DNA of 29,281 nt from a virus (taxonomy: Duplodnaviria; Heunggongvirae; Uroviricota; Caudoviricetes). The notes beneath the pieces are model-generated. The model had not been told where the DNA came from and searched no databases. It was given only the letters and a program-made list of their open reading frames with translations. This document shows, in pieces, positions 7,917 through 22,579 of the stretch. Position 1 is the stretch's first letter, and every line of letters begins with the position of its first letter. The DNA is taken from the IMG/VR virus record IMGVR_UViG_2671180846_000020; one strand, given 5' to 3'. The translations under genes and the position numbers were made by a program.

Positions 7917-8966
7917 GTGCGGGTATTACTTAGACCTGTTCTGGTGCCTGAGCTTGGGCTGGTGGTCCTTAAGCCGGGCCGTGAATCCATACAGATATTT
8001 CATAATCCTCGAGTGCTGGTGGAACCGGAACCAAAAAGCATGCGTAATCTGCCATCCGGAGTCGTTCCTGCCGTTCGCCAGCCGCTGGCGGAAGACAAAA
8101 CATTGCTGCCGTTTTTTAGTAACGAACGGGTGATTCGTGCTGCTGGCGGCGTTGGCGCATTGTCCGACTGGCTATTACGTCATGTTACATCCTGCCAGTG
8201 GCCTAATGGCGATTACCATCACACTGAAACAGTCATTCACCGTTATGGTACCGGCGCAATGGTGTTGTGCTGGCACTGCGACAACCAACTGCGTGACCAG
8301 ACATCGGAATCACTGGAGCTGCTTGCTCAACAAAATCTGACAGCATGGGTGATTGACGTCATCCGTCACGCAATAAGCGGTACGCAGGAGCGGGAATTAT
8401 CTTTGGCTGAATTATCCTGGTGGGCGGTCTGCAATCAGGTGGTGGATGCACTACCTGAGGCTGTATCGCGTCGTTCGCTGGGATTACCAGCGGAAAAAAT
8501 CTGCTCGGTGTACCGCGAAAGCGACATCGTACCGGGAGAGCAGACCGCCACCAGCATATTGAAACAACGCACAAAAAATCTTGCACCGTTGCCTTACGCC
8601 CACCAGCAACAAAAATCACCACAGGAAAAGACGGTGGTAAGCATCACCGTTGATCCAGAGTCTCCGGAATCTTTCATGAAGCTGCCTAAACGTCGCCGCT
8701 GGGTTAAGGAGAAATACACACGTTGGGTTAAGACACAGCCGTGTGCTTGCTGCGGTATGCCAGCCGACGATCCGCATCATCTGATTGGTCACGGGCAGGG
8801 CGGAATGGGAACAAAAGCACATGATCTCTTTGTGTTGCCTTTGTGCAGAAAGCATCACAACGAGCTGCATACGGATACAGTGGCATTTGAAGATAAGTAT
8901 GGCTCCCAACTGGAGCTGATATTTCGTTTTATCGATCGCGCGCTGGCAATTGGCGTACTGGCGTAA
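7917..8966 (+). CDS. DUF968-type protein with C-terminal HNH-like zinc motif (YdfU-like)
   Basis: A GTG start at 7917 gives 349 aa. The C-terminus carries QPCACCGMPADDPHHLIGHGQGG ... LPLCRKHHNELH, an HNH-nuclease-like Cys/His arrangement, and there is a second CxxC (CWHC) earlier. Confidence 0.65.
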   Translation: MRVLLRPVLVPELGLVVLKPGRESIQIFHNPRVLVEPEPKSMRNLPSGVVPAVRQPLAEDKTLLPFFSNERVIRAAGGVGALSDWLLRHVTSCQWPNGDYHHTETVIHRYGTGAMVLCWHCDNQLRDQTSESLELLAQQNLTAWVIDVIRHAISGTQERELSLAELSWWAVCNQVVDALPEAVSRRSLGLPAEKICSVYRESDIVPGEQTATSILKQRTKNLAPLPYAHQQQKSPQEKTVVSITVDPESPESFMKLPKRRRWVKEKYTRWVKTQPCACCGMPADDPHHLIGHGQGGMGTKAHDLFVLPLCRKHHNELHTDTVAFEDKYGSQLELIFRFIDRALAIGVLA

Positions 8967-10366: not shown

Positions 10367-10666
10367 AAAAATTCCTTAATACTGATAACTTGGCGCACTA
10401 TACACACGTTCCTGAAGAAAGCTATAGTTTTTTGATGGGGTTGAAGATGGCTGGATGTCTAAAATAAACATTGCTTCATATGTTCAACTATGCGTTAATG
10501 ATTGCGTCGGTTTGAAGAACAGACGATATACGAAGTAGTTTACTAAAGCAGTTCTCATTTCAGGTGTTATTCACTTATTCCTTCTTTGAGTCTCTCCAAT
10601 TAAGTACGAAGTCGTTTCTGTTATGCAAACCATTTATGCCGAAAGGCTCAAGTTAAGGAATGTAGA

Positions 10667-10882
10667 ATGTCAAATAAAATGACTGGTTTAGTAAAATGGT
10701 TTAACGCTGATAAAGGTTTCGGCTTTATTTCTCCTGTTGATGGTAGTAAAGATGTGTTTGTGCATTTTTCTGCGATTCAGAATGATAATTATCGAACCTT
10801 ATTTGAAGGTCAAAAGGTTACCTTCTCTATAGAGAGAGGTGCTAAAGGTCCTGCAGCAGCAAATGTCATCATTACTGATTAA
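10667..10882 (+). CDS. cspB: cold shock protein CspB-like
   Basis: 71-aa protein [38 protein letters not shown]... with the RNP motifs of CspA-family proteins; long upstream leader. Confidence 0.8.
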
Positions 10883-11163
10883 AATTCATCGCTCGTCTGT
10901 ATACGATAACGAAGAAGGCTGATGCCTGAGTAGAGATACGGACAGAGTAGTGAATATTGGATCTCTTTAATAAAAAGTAAGGAGGTCCAATACATGAAAC
11001 AATGGCTAGCATATTTGGCAAAATCTTAATCAGGAAAAGTATGCTAACCATTGTGGTGAAGTGCAGGTTTGCTGCATGAATAGTTTCACAGCAGAAGCTA
11101 ACTGCTGGCATCGCAAAACAAAGTGCGTAAGTGGATGACTCCCACAAAAAGCACCACAATCTC

Positions 11164-13191: not shown

Positions 13192-13553
13192 GGTAATATT
13201 AAATCGGAACATTTACATCGCGGAATGTAAAATTTAAATAAAAAGGACTCTTCCATGAGCCAAAATTCCTGAAATCTTAAGGGTAAGATAAAAGGTCTTA
13301 ATCAGAATGACACGTTTTATTAATAAATAAAGCTATTCTTTCATTGCTGTGTTTTTCTTTACAAAAGTAATCCTTGCTATGGGTGGTTAATCATGCGTTA
13401 ATGGTGTTCTGGTTTGTTACAAATTTATCTGAAGCAGTCATTGTTATAATTTTATTATTTGTACCTCTTGAGATTTCCTTGTTGGTTTTTCTCTCTGATA
13501 TTTTTTTTCGGACCATTCTGCCCAAGGGCTAATTTCTTCAAAAGGTAATAATT

Positions 13554-13766
13554 ATGTCTAACAAAATGACTGGTTTAGTGAAATGGTTTAACCCTGAAAA
13601 AGGTTTTGGTTTCATCACGCCGAAAGATGGCAGCAAAGATGTGTTTGTCCATTTCTCAGCAATTCAGAGCAACGATTTCAAAACATTAACTGAGAATCAG
13701 GAAGTTGAATTTGGTATTGAGAACGGACCTAAAGGTCCTGCCGCTGTTCATGTAGTGGCGCTTTGA
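13554..13766 (+). CDS. cspI: cold shock protein CspI-like
   Basis: 70-aa protein [70 protein letters not shown]; long AT-rich leader upstream. Confidence 0.85.
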
Positions 13767-13967
13767 GGTAGACAATATTACAAACCATATTCACTTTAGA
13801 TGCCCGTGTTGTCATGGTTCCCAGTATAGAACATCATCTTTTGATGTTTCTGACATGAATCCTTTCGGGGCAAAATGTATCTTTTGTAAATCAATGATGA
13901 TTACATTTGATAATATTTCACAATACTTAAATGCCAGCCGTCTGTCGTTGGATTTAAAAAAGTGAAA

Positions 13968-14764: not shown

Positions 14765-15175
14765 TTAGCGTGGTAAGATCTGTGTAGTTTTCTGGATGCT
14801 TTCAGTAAATAGTAATGAGTTATCAAAGGCATAGTAATATCTTTGGTGTTCCTGGATATTTGTAACCCATCGGAAAACTCCTGCTTTAGCAAGATTTTCC
14901 CTGTATTGTTGAAATGTGATTTCTTTTGATTTCAACTTATTATAGGAGGTCTCTATAAGATGTTTGTTTCTGGAGAATTTAACATTTACAACCTTTTTGA
15001 GTCCTTTTACTAACACTATGTTGTCGTTTTCTAACACAATGTGAATATTATCTGTGGCTAAATAGTAAATATAAAGTGAGACATTGTGACGTTTTAGCTC
15101 AGAATAAAATAATTCACAGTTTAAATCTTTACGCACTTGATCGAATATTTCTTTAAAAATGGCAGCCTGAGCCAT
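14765..15175 (-). CDS. ydfO: YdfO-like protein (DUF1398 family)
   Basis: 136-aa protein starting [33 protein letters not shown]..., recognised as the Qin ydfO product. Confidence 0.75.
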
Positions 15176-15475: not shown

Positions 15476-15682
15476 ATGAATAAAGAACAATCTGCTGATG
15501 AAGTCTCGTTGGATCTGATTCGTGTAAAAAATATGCTTAATAGCACCATTTCTATGAGTTACCCGGATGTTGTAATTGCATGTATAGAACATCAGGTGTC
15601 TCTGGAAGCATTCAGGGCAATTGAGGCAGCGTTGGTGAAGCACGATAAGAATTCGAAGGATTATTCCCTGGTGGTTGACTGA
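15476..15682 (+). CDS. hypothetical small protein, 68 aa
   Basis: [29 protein letters not shown]...; no motif recognised. It lies just upstream of the cos region. Confidence 0.4.
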
Positions 15683-16006
15683 GCACCATAACTGCTAATC
15701 ATTCAAACTATTTCACCTGTGACAGAGTCAATATCGCATTCTGTCACTGTCAGGCTAATACAGAGCTGCAATTCAACTACTGCAATGTCCTCGTAATTAG
15801 GTGAATTTACAATATCGTCCTGTTCGGATGCCGGTTGCATTGCTGAAGATGAGGCATTTATGGTTCGCATATTTTCCCCTCATGCTCGTCAGTCCTGTGC
15901 GTAGGAAGAAACAGGACACTCACACTAATTTGTGTGGGCATGCTGTGATGTCCTTCTGAATTATTCCTATGCCATTATGTAAAGCGCTGTATCAGATGCT
16001 CATCAC

Positions 16007-16034
16007 GGCTGTCAGGCTGTCAGGCTGTCGGGTC
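16007..16034. repeat. three tandem copies of an 8-bp unit (GGCTGTCA/G) upstream of cos
   Basis: GGCTGTCAGGCTGTCAGGCTGTCGGG read directly in the sequence. Confidence 0.6.
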
Positions 16035-16039
16035 CTCCC

Positions 16040-16130
16040 GGTGGGGGCCCCTGCCACGGGGCGGGAGCGTCGCGGAAAAAGGCTAGTTTTTGCATTTCCA
16101 TGGCGGCGGCAGCATGTTTGGTAATTTATT
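16040..16130. other. lambda-like cohesive-end site (cosN near 16058-16069, with flanking cosB-like region)
   Basis: ACGGGGCGGGAGCGTCGCGG...TTTTTGCATTTCC resembles the lambda cos sequence ACGGGGCGGCGACCTCGCGGGTTTTCGC...AAATTTTCC, and lies about 190 nt upstream of the Nu1-like start, as in lambda. Confidence 0.5.
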
Positions 16131-16254
16131 GATAATTAAAAGTTATTTCTCTTTTCACCTGTACAATATTTCTTTCTCCCTGTCATTAGACCAGTTTGCA
16201 ATTAATTGAAATATATAAATAAACATGATTTTCACCTGCCAGATGGAGTTGCTT

Positions 16255-16782
16255 ATGTCAAATGTGAGCGGGATCGGTGATGCTTATTACTGGAGTGTTT
16301 TTAAAATCGCTGAGGCCTTTGGGCTTCACCGGGACACAGTAAAAAAACGGCTCCTCGCGGCTAACACTCCTGTGGCTGCGACTGTCAGGGGGAACCCCGT
16401 TTACGCCCTGCAGCATGTCGGGCCAGCCCTGTTTAGTGTGAAGCATGAGGCAGCAGACTCTGTTCATGATCCATCCCGTATGGAGCCGAAAGAGAGAAAG
16501 GACTGGTACCAATCTGAAAATGAAAGGATCAAGCTGGAAAAGGAGCAGCGAAAACTCATCCCCGTTGATGAAGTAGTCATCGTCTATTCGTCCATGAGAA
16601 AGGCTGTCGTCCAGGTTCTGGAGACAATTCCGGATGTTCTTGAACGCGATTGCGCCCTGACTCCTCAGGCCGTCGGCGTTGTACAGCAGGCCATTGATGA
16701 CCTGCGATACACTCTTCAGGAAAAATCCTACGAGGCTTGTGCTGCTGAATTAATTCCTGATGAGGAAGGAGAGAGTCTCTAG
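16255..16782 (+). CDS. terminase small subunit (Nu1-like)
   Basis: First gene after cos, about 175 aa, with an N-terminal DNA-binding-like region; GGAG SD; directly precedes the large terminase. Confidence 0.75.
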   Translation: MSNVSGIGDAYYWSVFKIAEAFGLHRDTVKKRLLAANTPVAATVRGNPVYALQHVGPALFSVKHEAADSVHDPSRMEPKERKDWYQSENERIKLEKEQRKLIPVDEVVIVYSSMRKAVVQVLETIPDVLERDCALTPQAVGVVQQAIDDLRYTLQEKSYEACAAELIPDEEGESL

Positions 16783-16790
16783 GAGGAATA

Positions 16791-18890
16791 ATGGGTTTTT
16801 CATCAGCCCGAAATTTGGGAAGGGACATATCGGCAGGATTTTCCCCACCACGTCGCATGCCGATTTCGGAGGCTGTTAAAAAATTCATGCGTGTTCCCAA
16901 GGGGGCTGGTAACTCGGTGCCATGGGATCCTGAACTGACACCCTACATCATTGAGCCCATGAACTGCCTGGCATCGCGTGAATACGATGCGGTGATTTTT
17001 GTTGGTCCTGCGCGAACAGGGAAGACCATTGGTCTGATCGATGGATGGATTGTCTATACCATCGTTTGCGATCCTTCGGACATGCTCGTTGTGCAGATGA
17101 CCGAAGATAAGGCCCGCGAGCATTCTAAAAAGCGCCTCGACAGAACGTTCAGAAGCAGTGCGGCGGTAAAGAAAAGAATGAGTCCACGTCGTAACGACAA
17201 TAATGTCCATGATAAGACGTTCAGGGATGGCTCGTTCCTTAAAATTGGTTGGCCCTCGGTCAACATTATGTCGTCGTCGGATTACCGGTTTGTCGCCTTA
17301 ACCGATTACGACCGTTTTCCGGAGAATATCGACAGCGAGGGTGATGGTTTCTCCCTGGCCTCAAAACGTACCACCACATTTATGTCCGCTGGGATGACTC
17401 TGGTGGAGAGCTCGCCGGGACGTGACATCTGCGACAGCAAATGGCGACGTAAGTCGCCTCATGAAGCGCCACCGACGACTGGTATTCTTTCCCTTTACAA
17501 TCGTGGTGACCGCCGCCGCTGGTACTGGTCATGTCCGCACTGCGGTGAATATTTTCAGCCAGCCATGGATGCCATGACCGGCTACCGTAATGAACCGGAT
17601 CCCTTTAAAGCCAGTGAGGCGGCGTATCTACTTTGCCCGCACTGCAGCGGCATTATCACTGCGGAGAAAAAGCGTGAGCTCAATAGTGCAGGAGTCTGGT
17701 TGCGTGAAGGTCAGGTCATTGATCGTAACGGCAACGTTTCCGGTGAACCGCGCCGCTCCCGTATCGCCAGTTTCTGGATGGAAGGGCCAGCTGCTGCGTA
17801 TCAGACCTGGGCGCAACTGGTTTACAAATTACTGACTGCAGAACAGGAGTATGAAGCGACAGGAAGCGAAGAAACACTCAGGGCGGTTATCAACACCGAC
17901 TGGGGATTGCCTTATCTTCCTCGTGCCAGCATGGAGCAACGAAAAAGTGAACTGCTTGAGCAGCGGGCAGAGCCAGTTCCTTCCCGCAGTGTGCCGGATG
18001 GCGTTAATTTCCTTGTGGCGACAGTGGATGTGCAGGCGGGACGTCATCGCCGTTTTGTGGTTCAGGTAACGGGCTATGGCAGTCGTGGCGAACGCTGGAT
18101 TATTGATCGTTACAACATCACGCAGTCATTGCGCAGTGACTGCGACGGGGAGAGCCAGCGAATTGATCCGGCCAGCTATCCGGAAGACTGGGATGTCCTG
18201 CTGACGGATGTTTTTCATAAAAGCTGGCCGCTGGCCTCCGATCCTTCTCAACAAATGCGACTGATGGCAATGGCGGTGGACTCCGGCGGTGAAGACGGGG
18301 TCACTGATAATGCCTATAAATTCTGGCGTCGTTGCCGTCGTGATGGCCTTGGTAAACGTATTTACCTGTTTAAGGGTGACAGCATCCGGCGCGCAAAACT
18401 GATCAGCCGTACATTCCCTGATAACACCGGACGAACGGGCCGCCGGGCGCAGGCCGCAGGTGATGTGCCGCTCTGGCTTCTTCAGACGGATGCCCTGAAA
18501 GACCGGGTGAATAACGCGTTATGGCGTGACTCGCCAGGTCCAGGCTATGTGCATTTCCCTGACTGGCTGGGGAGCTGGTTTTACGACGAACTGACGTATG
18601 AAGAGCGGAGCAGTGACGGGAAATGGAGTAAGCCGGGTCGCGGTGCCAACGAAGCTTTTGACCTGATGGTGTATGCCGAGGCTCTGGTCATTCTGCATGG
18701 ATACGAAAAGATCCGCTGGCCGGATGCACCGGAGTGGGCGAGCCGGGAGACCTGGCTGGAGTGTGTCCAGGACAGTACCGAACCGTCATCCTCACCGGAA
18801 CCGGTATCCACGCCTGTTAAAAAACAAAAACGGAAGAAAACAGTAACTGACGATGTTAACCCCTGGCTGACTTCCGGAGGATGGTTATGA
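16791..18890 (+). CDS. terminase large subunit (lambda gpA-like)
   Basis: 699-aa protein with a Walker A-like GPARTGKT and the lambda-A-like motif CPHCGEYF; strong AGGAGG SD. Confidence 0.9.
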   Translation: MGFSSARNLGRDISAGFSPPRRMPISEAVKKFMRVPKGAGNSVPWDPELTPYIIEPMNCLASREYDAVIFVGPARTGKTIGLIDGWIVYTIVCDPSDMLVVQMTEDKAREHSKKRLDRTFRSSAAVKKRMSPRRNDNNVHDKTFRDGSFLKIGWPSVNIMSSSDYRFVALTDYDRFPENIDSEGDGFSLASKRTTTFMSAGMTLVESSPGRDICDSKWRRKSPHEAPPTTGILSLYNRGDRRRWYWSCPHCGEYFQPAMDAMTGYRNEPDPFKASEAAYLLCPHCSGIITAEKKRELNSAGVWLREGQVIDRNGNVSGEPRRSRIASFWMEGPAAAYQTWAQLVYKLLTAEQEYEATGSEETLRAVINTDWGLPYLPRASMEQRKSELLEQRAEPVPSRSVPDGVNFLVATVDVQAGRHRRFVVQVTGYGSRGERWIIDRYNITQSLRSDCDGESQRIDPASYPEDWDVLLTDVFHKSWPLASDPSQQMRLMAMAVDSGGEDGVTDNAYKFWRRCRRDGLGKRIYLFKGDSIRRAKLISRTFPDNTGRTGRRAQAAGDVPLWLLQTDALKDRVNNALWRDSPGPGYVHFPDWLGSWFYDELTYEERSSDGKWSKPGRGANEAFDLMVYAEALVILHGYEKIRWPDAPEWASRETWLECVQDSTEPSSSPEPVSTPVKKQKRKKTVTDDVNPWLTSGGWL

Positions 18891-19099: not shown

Positions 19100-20607
19100 T
19101 GGCAATTCTTGATGATGTGATTGGCGTTTTTTCACCAGGATGGAAAGCGGCAAGGCTGCGTTCCCGTGCGGTGATCCAGGCTTATGAGGCCGTAAAAACG
19201 ACGCGGACACACAAAGCCCGACGGGAGAACCGAACTGCCGACCAGTTAAGCCAGTACGGGGCCGTGTCGTTACGTGAGCAGGCCCGTTACCTTGATAACA
19301 ACCACGATCTGGTTATTGGTGTATTTGACAAGCTGGAAGAACGGGTGGTGGGGAAAAACGGGATTATTGTCGAGCCACATCCGGTATTACGCAATGGGGC
19401 CATTGCCCGTGACCTGGCTGCGGAGATTCGCACCCGATGGAGTGAATGGTCTGTCAGCCCGGAAGTCACCGGGCAGTTTACCCGTCCGATGCTGGAACGT
19501 CTGATGCTTCGTACCTGGCTGCGCGATGGTGAGGTGTTTGCCCAGATGGTTTCCGGGCGCATAAACAGCCTGGCGCCTTCTGCCGGTGTTCATTTCTGGC
19601 TGGAGGCGCTCGAGCCGGACTTTATTCCCATGACTAGTGATGAGAGCAACAGGCTGAATCAGGGCGTGTTTGTTGATGACTGGGGGCGTCCCGAAAAATA
19701 TCTGGTGTATAAAAGCCGTCCCGTATCCGGACGGCAGATGGAAACCAAAGAAGTGGATGCAGAGCGAATGCTGCATCTTAAATTTGTTCGCCGTCTGCAC
19801 CAGATGCGCGGGACGTCTTTGTTGTCCGGTGTGCTGATCCGCCTCAGTGCCCTGAAAGAATATGAAGATTCTGAGCTGACTGCAGCAAGGATCGCCGCTG
19901 CTCTGGGGATGTACATCCGGAAAGGCGACGGGCAGAGCTATGAACCGGATGGTAATGGCAGAAAGGAGAATGAACGTGAGCTTACCATTCAGCCGGGCAT
20001 TATTTACGACGATCTGAAACCCGGCGAAGAAATCGGAATGGTGAAGTCGGATCGCCCCAATCCTAACCTTGAAACTTTTCGTAATGGTCAGTTGCGTGCC
20101 GTGGCGGCGGGCAGTCGTCTGAGTTTTTCCAGTACAGCGCGCAACTATAACGGCACTTACAGCGCCCAGCGTCAGGAGCTGGTTGAATCCACTGATGGCT
20201 ACCTGATCCTGCAGGACTGGTTTATTGGTGCCGTCACCCGCCCGATGTATCGTGCATGGCTGAAACAGGCTGTGGCATCCGGTGTTATCAGGCTACCCCG
20301 CGATCTTGACCGTTCTTCACTGTATACCGCGGTGTATTCCGGACCAGTGATGCCGTGGATTGACCCTGTTAAGGAGGCTGAGGCCTGGAAAATCCAGATT
20401 CGTGGTGGAGCGGCGACAGAATCAGACTGGGTACGTGCTGGTGGTCGTAATCCGGATGATGTCAAACGTCGGCGCAAGGCCGAAATTGATGAAAACCGCA
20501 AGCTGGATCTGGTATTTGATACCGATCCGGCCAGTGATAAAGGAGGCAGTAGTGCCGCAACGAAACGACAGGAGCCGCAGCACACCGACGACCAGTCCGA
20601 AGAATAA
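19099..20607 (+). CDS. portal protein (lambda gpB-like)
   Basis: About 500-aa protein after W; its ATG overlaps the W stop; lambda gene order. Confidence 0.85.
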   Translation: MAILDDVIGVFSPGWKAARLRSRAVIQAYEAVKTTRTHKARRENRTADQLSQYGAVSLREQARYLDNNHDLVIGVFDKLEERVVGKNGIIVEPHPVLRNGAIARDLAAEIRTRWSEWSVSPEVTGQFTRPMLERLMLRTWLRDGEVFAQMVSGRINSLAPSAGVHFWLEALEPDFIPMTSDESNRLNQGVFVDDWGRPEKYLVYKSRPVSGRQMETKEVDAERMLHLKFVRRLHQMRGTSLLSGVLIRLSALKEYEDSELTAARIAAALGMYIRKGDGQSYEPDGNGRKENERELTIQPGIIYDDLKPGEEIGMVKSDRPNPNLETFRNGQLRAVAAGSRLSFSSTARNYNGTYSAQRQELVESTDGYLILQDWFIGAVTRPMYRAWLKQAVASGVIRLPRDLDRSSLYTAVYSGPVMPWIDPVKEAEAWKIQIRGGAATESDWVRAGGRNPDDVKRRRKAEIDENRKLDLVFDTDPASDKGGSSAATKRQEPQHTDDQSEE

Positions 20608-20620
20608 TTCCTGGTTCAGG

Positions 20621-22579
20621 ATGCAGGCTGGTCACCAGAGTGACGCGGATATTTATATTTATGACGAGATTGGTTTCTGGGGTGTTACAGCGAAGCAGTT
20701 TATCAGTGATCTGAATGCACTGGGCGATATCACCCACATTAATCTCCATATTAATTCACCGGGTGGCGATGTCTTTGAAGGCATCGCCATTTTTAATGCG
20801 CTGAAAACACATGGTGCGTCCATTACCGTTTATGTCGACGGTGTGGCGGCGTCAATGGCGTCGGTCATTGCGATGGTAGGAAACCCGGTCATTATGCCGG
20901 AAAACTCCTTCATGATGATTCATAAACCATTTGGCTTTACGGGCGGTGATGCGGAGGACATGCGCACCTATGCCGACCTGCTCGATAAAGTTGAGGCGGT
21001 TCTGTTACCCGCTTATGCACAGAAAACCGGGAAAACCACCGATGAAATTGCTGCCATGCTGGCGGATGAGACCTGGATGTCCGGTGCCGAATGTCTGGCA
21101 CAGGGATTTGCTGATCAGGTGACACCAGCCGTTAAGGCAATGGCATGTATTCAGTCAAAACGTACAGAGGAATTTAAAAAGATGCCGGAATCCATTCGAA
21201 ATATGATTACTCCGCCACGCAACAGTGCTCCACGCGTACAGGATGATGGACCTGCAGCCTCCCGGACGCCAGTGCAGGCAGCAGCACCCGTGGTGGATGA
21301 AAACAGCATCCGTGCGCAGGTCCTGGCAGAGCAAAAAGCGCGTGTAAACGGTATTAATGATCTGTTTGCCATGTTTGGCGGGCGTTATCAGTCGTTGCAG
21401 GCTCAGTGTCTTGCCGATCCTGAATGTTCGCTGGAGCAGGCCCGCGAAAAGCTGTTGAACGAGATGGGGCGCGAGTCCACGCCATCCAATAAAAATACCC
21501 CGGCTCATATTTATGCCGGTAACGGTAATTTTGTGGGGGACGGGATCCGCCAGGCGCTGATGGCGCGCGCCGGGTTTGAAAAAACTGAACGTGATAATGT
21601 CTACAACGGGATGACCCTGCGTGAATATGCCCGTATGTCACTGACTGAACGTGGTATTGGTGTTTCCAGTTATAACCCGATGCAGATGGTCGGTGCGGCG
21701 TTCACACACAGTACGTCTGACTTCGGTAATATTCTGCTGGATGTTGCGAACAAAGCCATTCTGCAGGGCTGGGAAGATGCCCCTGAAACCTATGAACAGT
21801 GGACGCGGAAAGGTCAGTTGTCTGATTTTAAAATTGCCCATCGTGTGGGTATGGGGGGCTTCAGTGCTCTGCGTCAGGTGCGTGAAGGGGCAGAATATAA
21901 ATACGTCACCACCGGAGATAAACAGGCCACTATTGCACTGGCGACCTATGGCGAGCTGTTCAGTATCACCCGTCAGGCCATTATCAATGATGATCTGAAT
22001 ATGCTGACCGATGTCCCGATGAAGCTGGGCCGTGCGGCGAAATCCACTATTGCCGATCTGGTTTATGCCATTCTGACGTCTAACCCGAAAATCTCCACAG
22101 ATAATGTAAGTCTGTTCGATAAAGCGAAACATGCAAACGTACTGGAGAGCGCGGCAATGGACGTGGCATCGCTGGATAAAGCCCGCCAGTTGATGCGCGT
22201 TCAGAAAGAGGGTGAGCGTCATCTGAATATTCGTCCTGCGTTCGTACTGGTACCGACGGCGATGGAGTCTGTTGCTAACCAGGTCATTCGCTCCTCAAGT
22301 GTCAAGGGGGCTGACATTAACGCCGGTATTATTAACCCGGTGAAAGATTTTGCGACCGTTATTGCAGAGCCTCGTCTTGATGATAACAGCCAGACCACCT
22401 TCTACCTGGCTGCGTCCAAAGGCTCCGATACGATTGAAGTGGCTTATCTCAACGGTGTGGATACGCCATATATTGATCAGATGGAGGGCTTCAGTGTGGA
22501 TGGCGTGACAACGAAAGTGCGTATTGACGCTGGTGTTGCGCCAGTTGATCACCGCGGCCTGGTGAAATGTACGGCGTAA
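20621..22579 (+). CDS. prohead protease (ClpP/S49-like) fused to an HK97-fold major capsid protein
   Basis: The N-terminal third has the ClpP-like motif INSPGGDVFEGIAIFNALK...ASMASVIA; the C-terminal portion resembles HK97-type major capsid proteins. It is one continuous frame of 652 aa from the ATG at 20621. Confidence 0.75.
   Translation: MQAGHQSDADIYIYDEIGFWGVTAKQFISDLNALGDITHINLHINSPGGDVFEGIAIFNALKTHGASITVYVDGVAASMASVIAMVGNPVIMPENSFMMIHKPFGFTGGDAEDMRTYADLLDKVEAVLLPAYAQKTGKTTDEIAAMLADETWMSGAECLAQGFADQVTPAVKAMACIQSKRTEEFKKMPESIRNMITPPRNSAPRVQDDGPAASRTPVQAAAPVVDENSIRAQVLAEQKARVNGINDLFAMFGGRYQSLQAQCLADPECSLEQAREKLLNEMGRESTPSNKNTPAHIYAGNGNFVGDGIRQALMARAGFEKTERDNVYNGMTLREYARMSLTERGIGVSSYNPMQMVGAAFTHSTSDFGNILLDVANKAILQGWEDAPETYEQWTRKGQLSDFKIAHRVGMGGFSALRQVREGAEYKYVTTGDKQATIALATYGELFSITRQAIINDDLNMLTDVPMKLGRAAKSTIADLVYAILTSNPKISTDNVSLFDKAKHANVLESAAMDVASLDKARQLMRVQKEGERHLNIRPAFVLVPTAMESVANQVIRSSSVKGADINAGIINPVKDFATVIAEPRLDDNSQTTFYLAASKGSDTIEVAYLNGVDTPYIDQMEGFSVDGVTTKVRIDAGVAPVDHRGLVKCTA

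Follow-up and report, generated by a model that had tools for sequence, protein, structure and literature searches.

The 29,281-nucleotide stretch of viral DNA analysed here (IMG/VR record IMGVR_UViG_2671180846_000020; the window, whose positions are used throughout) contains a predicted DNA packaging site, cos, of the type found in phage lambda. The 5′ side of the site is occupied by accessory genes (YbcV/DUF1398, YbcW-like, GnsB, and cold-shock genes) and lysis genes. The genes on the 3′ side follow the lambda order, with a small terminase, a large terminase of the gpA family, a W-like head-tail adaptor, and a portal protein of the lambda family. Because the lysis and accessory genes are located upstream of cos and the head genes downstream, the prophage is in its integrated order, with cos positioned mid-way. 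The small terminase gene (16255-16782, plus strand) begins with an ATG preceded by a GGAG ribosome-binding site and encodes a 175-residue protein of the DUF1441 family. The large terminase gene (16791-18890, plus strand) encodes a 699-residue protein with gpA ATPase and gpA endonuclease domains (Pfam GpA_ATPase and GpA_nuclease). In the 401 bp around cos, the window shows 100% identity to E. coli O26:H11 str. 11368, where the sequence is part of a prophage, and to other O26 strains. A match to at least a part of this 401-bp query is present in 2112 of 5426 complete E. coli genomes, and 661 of the genomes cover at least 80% of it. The NCBI annotation of the identical prophage of O26:H11 11368 marks no cos feature, and it starts the small terminase at the same ATG as in the window. 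Based on the comparisons described below, the segment from 16030 to approximately 16254 very probably represents cos in a lambda-like siphovirus prophage from the cdtI/Tritos lineage. It is an ordinary lambda-type cos, known both in kind and in its already deposited sequence, and it groups with variants in the style of Gifsy-1 and mEp213.

The left edge of cos is formed by the heptamer GGGTCCT (16030-16036, plus strand), which is identical to the lambda heptamer at bp 48473-48479 that we take, following Wieczorek and Feiss 2001, to be the packaging-termination signal cosQ. The heptamer is followed by a partly conserved spacer identified from alignments (CCCGGTG ... CCTGCC, 16037-16053, plus strand) and by cosN, which fits the 22-bp frame CCACG-GGGCGGGAGCGT-CGCGG (16054-16075) according to both a pattern match and the alignment to lambda. 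The composite pattern GGGTCCT-N17-25-ACGGGGCGG-N6-CGCGG has a single match in the window, at 16030-16075, and none in 100 shuffles. The sequence-only reading, which had quoted the string ACGGGGCGGGAGCGTCGCGG...TTTTTGCATTTCC (16056-16099) as a lambda-like cosN with a triple 8-bp repeat upstream, thus described features that are present. The predicted nicks are located between 16058 and 16059 in the top strand and between 16070 and 16071 in the bottom strand, each flanked by a CG dinucleotide, and cosQ is 29 bp to the left of the top-strand nick, as compared to 30 bp in lambda. Cleavage at these positions would generate a 12-nucleotide 5′ cohesive end GGGCGGGAGCGT (16059-16070, plus strand), and the overhang of the right end would be its complement. 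The polarity and length of this overhang are predictions, as are the nick positions.

The alignment of the window to lambda from cosQ through I2 contains 47 identical positions out of 71. Its score of 13 is approximately 5.7 standard deviations above the mean of shuffled sequences (−13.6, standard deviation 4.7, maximum 2, n=500). The overhang is identical to that of lambda at 8 of 12 positions, including bases 1-6, and differs at positions 7, 8, 9, and 11, which corrects the sequence-only reading in this detail. The start of the small terminase gene is at bp 197 from the predicted end, and that of lambda Nu1 is at bp 191, so that the gene is indeed at the lambda distance from cos, as had been claimed. 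Rotational symmetry is found at 8 of 16 and 12 of 22 positions in the window, and at 10 of 16 and 10 of 22 positions in lambda; the lambda value of 10/16 agrees with the published one (PMC9026076).

The subsites were compared in alignments with lambda, cdtI, mEp213, PhiR40_1, phi458, 1720a-02, VT1-Sakai, Fels-1, Gifsy-2, and Providencia phage PSTCR8lys. The heptamer GGGTCCT is kept in cdtI, mEp213, PhiR40_1, phi458, 1720a-02, and VT1-Sakai, and reads AGGTACT in the Salmonella and Providencia phages. Its assignment as cosQ is supported by the invariance of the heptamer in the alignments. The homology of the window to cdtI, lambda, and satellite islands stops exactly at the left edge of cosQ. 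Feiss et al. 2015 (PMC4669245) reported high conservation of the 7-bp cosQ across lambda-like phages, invariance of cosQ and the CG flanks, variability of the right half of cosN, and a requirement for I2 together with cosQ and cosN in the termination of lambda packaging. The predicted nicks are followed by an I2-like spacer, CGCGGAAAAAGGCTAGTTTTTGCATTTCCAT (16071-16101, plus strand), which is kept across phages with differing small terminases. The multi-phage alignment shows that the conserved spacer to the right of cosN, CGCGGAAAAAGGCTAGTTTTT, corresponds to I2.

The first segment of cos that differs between terminase types is a block at bp 44-58 (16102-16116, plus strand). It reads GGCGGCGGCAGCATG in the window, TCGTCATCACCAC in mEp460 and phi458, and CGGCCACCATCATC in PhiR40. 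The first R-type repeat of the closest relatives of the small terminase is at bp 43, and R3 of lambda occupies bp 50-65 (PMC9026076). The block at the R3 position is the putative primary recognition site of the small terminase. It is followed by TAATTTATTGATA (the reverse of WATCAANNNNTTR; 16122-16134, plus strand), a match to the IHF core consensus at the position of lambda I1, which is the sole match on both strands of the 29-kb window. Relatives keep TAAnnnnTTGAT at this position, after which type-specific repeats follow. Therefore, we predict an IHF site at the I1 position within cosB. A conservation profile calculated from 213 unique cos regions among the matches listed from two IMG/VR scans has an information content near zero just to the left of cosQ, moderate to high values through I2, and a collapse at approximately bp 45. 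Terminase specificity appears to begin at this position.

The predicted end coincides with the ends of deposited genomes. A megablast search of the segment 15600-16900 against phage records showed that the records of cdtI (AB285204 / NC_009514) and Tritos (OV696610) begin at query position 460, which is window position 16059. Both records start with GGGCGGGAGCGTCGCGG and end with ...CCTGCCACG, so that their first base coincides with base 1 of the predicted end GGGCGGGAGCGT. Tritos is prophage 3 of E. coli LF82, a spontaneously induced, plaque-forming siphovirus (PMC9928086). The record of phage LLS annotates a 12-nucleotide "5' extended single-strand cohesive site GGGCGGCGCGCT" at the homologous position, and in the record of Hafnia phage yong2 the opening point falls precisely behind base 12 of the homologous sequence. 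The virion-derived assembly of mEp460_4F5 (LR595868.1), whose opening point is 5 bp to the left of the predicted nick, has GGGCGGGAGCGCGG in place of the GGGCGGGAGCGTCGCGG of relatives, with 3 bp missing exactly at the predicted right nick. This gap is probably an artefact of assembly or end repair that marks a physical end. Together, LLS, yong2, and mEp460_4F5 provide partial independent support for the predicted end. No copy of cos was found within 30 bp of the ends of the loci fetched for a search of contigs ending at the nick, these being the ends of the fetched segments and not true contig ends. On the basis of homology and record conventions, the 12-nucleotide 5′ end GGGCGGGAGCGT is very likely predicted correctly.

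Identity between the large terminase and lambda gpA is only 24%, though the DNA signals have been conserved. The small terminase is a member of Pfam family DUF1441 and of PHROG 141, annotated as "terminase small subunit". A BLASTP comparison to Nu1 detected no similarity; the proteins are connected by reciprocal matches to PHROGs, from the small terminase to PHROG 57, the Nu1 family (1e-9), and from Nu1 to PHROG 141 (6e-8). The profile of eleven DUF1441 proteins aligned by hhalign to residues 2-39 of Nu1, which form a winged helix-turn-helix, with E = 6e-4. The term "Nu1-like" used for the gene by the sequence-only reading therefore seems apt for the mechanism and fold class of the protein, which are indicated by this remote homology, and not for close family membership. 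Sequence searches of the PDB with both terminase subunits returned nothing usable. The scan of a genome collection for relatives of the small terminase returned two loci only. A contig binned in a metagenome-assembled genome of Veillonella parvula (JAGZPX010000007.1) encodes a small terminase 99% identical to that of the window. This contig almost certainly comes from an E. coli phage and was mis-binned.

A k-mer scan for binding sites, which recovered R3(+), R2(-), and R1(+) of lambda as a control, identified four alternating sites at approximately bp 43, 95, 120, and 170 in Trabulsiella guamensis and PSTCR8lys, the closest relatives with respect to the small terminase. The cosB of the window contains two plus-strand copies of TTTTCACCTG. 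The first (16152-16161) is at the R2 position, approximately bp 95. The second (16229-16238, approximately bp 172) is just 5′ of the ribosome-binding site of the small terminase and is kept in PSTCR8lys and in satellite cos sites without a small terminase gene. The recognition helices of the small terminases of the window (HRDTVKKRL) and PSTCR8lys (NRGTVKKRL) are nearly the same, and PSTCR8lys has TTTTCACCTGACAG just 5′ of the start codon of its small terminase. Therefore, the TTTTCACCTG repeats and the block at the R3 position are ranked as candidate binding sites of the small terminase.

Immediately to the left of cosQ is an array of three 8-bp repeats, GGCTGTCA GGCTGTCA GGCTGTCG (16007-16030, plus strand). 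Tandem Repeats Finder described it as 2.9 copies of the unit GGCTGTCA with 100% matches at 16007-16029; the third unit, GGCTGTCG, ends at 16030, and its final G is shared with cosQ. A two-unit probe, GGCTGTCAGGCTGTC, allowed up to two mismatches, matches this locus only in the window, where 0.08 matches are expected from shuffles and none of 100 shuffles reached two matches. To the left of cosQ, lambda (48453-48465), cdtI, mEp213, VT1-Sakai, and 1720a-02 have the palindrome GATAATCATTATC, in the place of which the window has the repeat. The lambda sequence GTAGATGATAATCATTATC matches at 16 of 19 positions what we take to be the Fur-box consensus. We know of no described function for the palindrome.

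The number of repeat units was surveyed next to 122 copies of the exact cosN 21-mer in IMG/VR, a redundant sample consisting of the matches listed, to which all of the following counts refer. Units resembling GGCTGTCA that abut cosQ number two in 81 copies, zero in 31, three in nine, and one in a single copy. Next to cosB of the cdtI type, zero units are found in 12 copies, two in 25, and three in seven; the mEp460 type has zero units in 14 copies, one in one, two in 38, and three in two, and the PhiR40 type has zero in two and two in 15. The contingency between the number of units and the cosB type showed no association. Three-unit alleles share their flanks with a two-unit allele, which fits a recent 8-bp duplication. 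The sequences of the units drift (GGTTGTCA, AGCTGTCA, GGCTGAC), and column conservation calculated over 64 unique flanks is no higher in the repeat than in the surrounding left-arm module. The repeat is absent in phage cdtI, the small terminase of which is 100% identical to that of the window. At the spot where the window has the repeat, other left modules terminate with either a palindrome or a terminator hairpin, and Trabulsiella and PSTCR8lys have nothing repeat-like to the left of cosQ. The polymorphism of zero, two, or three units, the absence of the repeat in cdtI, and the alternative left modules indicate that the repeat belongs to the neighbouring module and that cosQ is the left edge of cos. 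The repeat appears to be a variable, dispensable, and presumably neutral stretch of the non-coding left-arm module that usually comprises two units. The third unit in the window is best explained by an 8-bp tandem duplication caused by slippage.

The sequence-only reading had offered the repeat as a cosQ-like or protein-binding element, and neither proposal was supported. The repeat is not cosQ, since GGGTCCT adjoins it, with an overlap limited to the G that begins the heptamer and ends the last unit, and the repeat is dispensable. Next to one and the same cosN, zero, one, two, or three units are found, and the repeat is outside the unit that is co-transferred when other elements capture cos, as satellite copies start at GGGTCCT. 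A specificity-tied binding site of the small terminase was rejected because the number of units has no association with the cosB type, and extra constraint on the repeat because its conservation is no higher than that of the flanking module. Nothing in the analysis supports the repeat as a protein-binding element.

Several points weigh against the interpretation of the locus given above. The word cos is absent from the text of the paper describing Tritos (PMC9928086), and the origins of the cdtI and Tritos records could have been either measured or set by analogy with lambda. The cohesive site of LLS was inferred by its authors as equal to the putative site of mEp213 (PMC12315714). Since the large terminase is only 24% identical to gpA, the predicted nicking geometry is a long-range extrapolation. 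The k-mer scan did not recover an R3-R2-R1 set from the cosB of the window, only the two plus-strand TTTTCACCTG copies. The window shows no sign of inducibility. Approximately three-quarters of the cos sites of this type among the matches listed keep at least two repeat units, which, together with the occurrence in the units of CTGTCA, the core of the R-type repeats of PSTCR8lys, would be compatible with an improbable minor accessory role of the repeat.

The lack of signs of inducibility bears on the possibility that the cos is an intact-looking but unused relic, and that the prophage is defective in this genome and never packages from it. Many E. coli prophages are defective, and the identical sequence is present in many O26:H11 chromosomes. 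However, the ORFs (open reading frames) of the small terminase, large terminase, adaptor, portal, and protease-capsid proteins in the window are all intact, and each subsite of cos matches those of the active phages Tritos and cdtI. We consider a relic unlikely, and it would concern the activity of the site in one host rather than the identity of the element.

The frequency of multiple repeat units has to be weighed in connection with a function of the GGCTGTCA array as a protein-binding element, either an accessory site of the small terminase or a brake aiding the recognition of cosQ, the strength of which would be tuned by copy number. The array directly abuts cosQ, and 90 of the 122 cosN copies among the matches listed have at least two units. 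CTGTCA is the core of all four R-type repeats in the cosB of PSTCR8lys, the small terminase of which has the nearly identical recognition helix, and it also occurs once in the cosB of the window, at 16180. Moreover, there is a precedent for a remote accessory terminase site in rR2 of N15 (PMC4669245). However, a shared 6-mer is weak evidence, and the array is missing in cdtI despite the identical small terminase, in 12 of the 44 cos sites of the cdtI type among the matches listed, and in all four satellite-island copies. It is equally frequent beside two other cosB and terminase types with different-looking repeats, its units drift and are conserved no better than the flanks, and the closest relatives of the small terminase lack a similar array. 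Such a function is very improbable. The more detailed version, in which a small terminase or host factor bound to the array would slow or position the incoming motor so that the number of units modulates terminal cos cleavage, deserves slightly less credence still.

Variation in the predicted overhang is consistent with what is known about cosN. Cleavage is little affected by changes at bp 7-12, which occur commonly, and the overhang of Gifsy-1 departs from that of lambda at positions 8, 9, and 11 (Feiss et al., PMC4669245). A second IMG/VR scan identified 26 different right halves following GGGCGG, including the Gifsy-1 type GGGCGGCAGCGT. The end of the window is therefore one common variant, which differs by one base from that of Gifsy-1. 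A literature search with the 12-mer GGGCGGGAGCGT returned only two papers, on human and rat, both unrelated. Cleavage at this site with a non-lambda geometry, that is, with an overhang of another length or with headful packaging after the first cut, might be suspected from the low identity of the large terminase to gpA and from Gifsy-2, which has a small terminase of the same family and a cosN region that fits the 12-nucleotide frame poorly. However, both lambda nick positions retain their CG dinucleotides at a spacing of exactly 12 bp, the yong2 record was opened directly after base 12, the 3-bp anomaly of the mEp460_4F5 assembly is at the predicted right nick, and the gpA-type terminase family is the one linked to 5′ cohesive ends (PMC12315714). 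Hence, a different geometry is hardly to be expected.

The left-arm module next to the repeat contains a 55-codon ORF on the minus strand (15703-15870) with a good ribosome-binding site and a PHROG 4035 match of 1e-40. Lambda is homologous to only a part of it, and it is uncalled by NCBI in the identical O26:H11 prophage. The ORF is transcribed away from cos, so that its promoter would be expected between the ORF and cos. It is highly improbable that the repeat is a part of this promoter or an operator of the ORF: the ORF is 137 bp from the repeat, the minus-strand CTGACA resembles a −35 hexamer, and the repeat travels with the left-arm module rather than with cos, but a sigma-70 scan of the minus strand from 15600 to 16300 found no promoter-like site, no acceptable −10 hexamer at the right spacing was seen by eye, the ORF is left uncalled in the NCBI annotation, and a change in copy number would alter any −35/−10 spacing. 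The scan for sigma-70 promoters and terminators detected neither at the repeat.

Based on the preferred interpretation of the locus as a lambda-type cos bounded on the left by cosQ, and by homology with lambda, a packaging mechanism can be proposed. The DUF1441 small terminase would bind cosB, which comprises the TTTTCACCTG repeats and, at 16102-16116, the R3-position block, and IHF would bend the DNA at 16122-16134. The bound cosB complex would position the gpA-type large terminase on cosN, and the large terminase would introduce nicks after 16058 (top strand) and after 16070 (bottom strand). The virion DNA would thus carry 12-nucleotide 5′ overhangs, with GGGCGGGAGCGT at the left end. Packaging presumably proceeds rightward via the genes for head and tail and on around the concatemer, and would stop once the translocating terminase encounters the next copy, first at cosQ (16030-16036) and subsequently at cosN and I2. 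The packaging machinery would not include the three GGCTGTCA units to the left of cosQ.

The extent of cos is also indicated by its copies in satellite islands. Four IMG/VR contigs (L018, L074, L107, and L133) contain a window-type cos without a small terminase gene. Their island genes include SSB (not detected in L107) and a fused protease-capsid protein 57% identical to that of the window. Homologues of integrase and of an AAA_25 replication protein are encoded in L018, L074, and L107, and were not detected in the fetched part of L133. The homology of the islands to the window extends from the first G of GGGTCCT to the start codon of the small terminase, where L018 has GTG-TAA. To the left of GGGTCCT, the islands have a terminator hairpin, and the GGCTGTCA repeat is absent in all four. 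These limits define a transferable cos unit of approximately 16030-16262, which includes the second TTTTCACCTG copy and excludes the GGCTGTCA repeat. The islands also carry a second lambda-like cos in tandem, and L133 a third, with a different cosB type; the cos sites are at 67, 8202, and 10738 in L018, at 7610 and 10146 in L074, and at 8402, 9807, and 12342 in L133. Multiple cos sites with different cosB may provide a route to packaging by helpers of differing terminase specificity. Phage-inducible chromosomal islands, EcCICFT073 among them, are known to have acquired cosQ and cosN from helper phages and in some cases, as in EcCICFT073, to hold two cos sites (PMC6739421).

Several other features of the window were recorded. 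A 51-codon ORF spanning cos (15969-16124) was taken as spurious, because it has no PHROG match. The 739-codon ORF at 20360-22579 encodes an apparent fusion of prohead protease and major capsid protein, as reported for Gifsy-2 and mEp213-like heads; the island-borne copy, to which it is 57% identical, has ClpP-protease and capsid Pfam domains. The Rfam scan of the window found no structured RNA at cos and yielded only two full-length matches to the cspA thermoregulator (RF01766), at 10506-10898 and 13408-13793, with scores of 162 and 113 bits. Both are upstream of cold-shock genes carried by the prophage, and CspI and CspB of Tritos are highly expressed morons. A 21-bp tandem duplication (15001-15042, 2.0 copies, 85% matches) is located within the minus-strand DUF1398 (YbcV-like) gene.

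The site opens no new question, and its unusual-looking repeat is best read as slippage. The practical value of the analysis is in annotation: it predicts, with exact coordinates, the packaged genome ends of a prophage type that many E. coli genomes carry, a large share of them, including O26:H11 enterohaemorrhagic E. coli (EHEC).

The cos of the window shares with lambda the cosQ heptamer, bases 1-6 of the overhang, the CG flanks, the order and distances of the subsites, the predicted IHF site at the I1 position, a large terminase of the gpA family, and a Nu1-type DNA-binding domain. It differs from lambda in overhang positions 7, 8, 9, and 11, in its unrelated cosB, from which the R3/R2/R1 triplet recovered in lambda was not obtained, in the small terminase, which belongs to another Pfam family (DUF1441), and in the divergence of the large terminase (24% identity). 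The closest known systems are cdtI and Tritos, with 97.5-98.5% identity to the window in cosN, the I2 spacer, and cosB and 100% identity in the small terminase. Tritos also shares the three-unit repeat and the left flank, whereas cdtI has a few base differences in the cosQ-cosN spacer and a different left-arm module that ends with GATAATCACTCTCATTTTGGC in place of the repeat. The group of Gifsy-1, mEp213, and LLS likewise has 12-nucleotide ends that vary in the right half. The GGGCGGCAGCGT type of Gifsy-1 is one base away from the end of the window, which has a G at overhang position 7. DUF1441 small terminases are shared with mEp213, Gifsy-2, and Fels-1, and the I2-like spacer with mEp213, the capsid gene of which is of a type that resembles the fused protease-coat gene of Gifsy-2. 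However, the small terminase of the window is only approximately 40% identical to those of mEp213 and Gifsy-2, and the block at the R3 position differs. Islands with a window-type cos were found in IMG/VR, comparable to phage-inducible chromosomal islands such as EcCICFT073, whose group has cosQ and cosN copied from helper phages. The cos of the window itself is the phage's own and is followed by the terminase genes, and the IMG/VR islands keep the phage-type cosB, whereas cosB of EcCICFT073 is different and Rpp-specific. The site illustrates the Feiss laboratory's point that divergence affects the terminases, cosB, and the right half of the overhang but spares cosQ, I2, and the left half of cosN.

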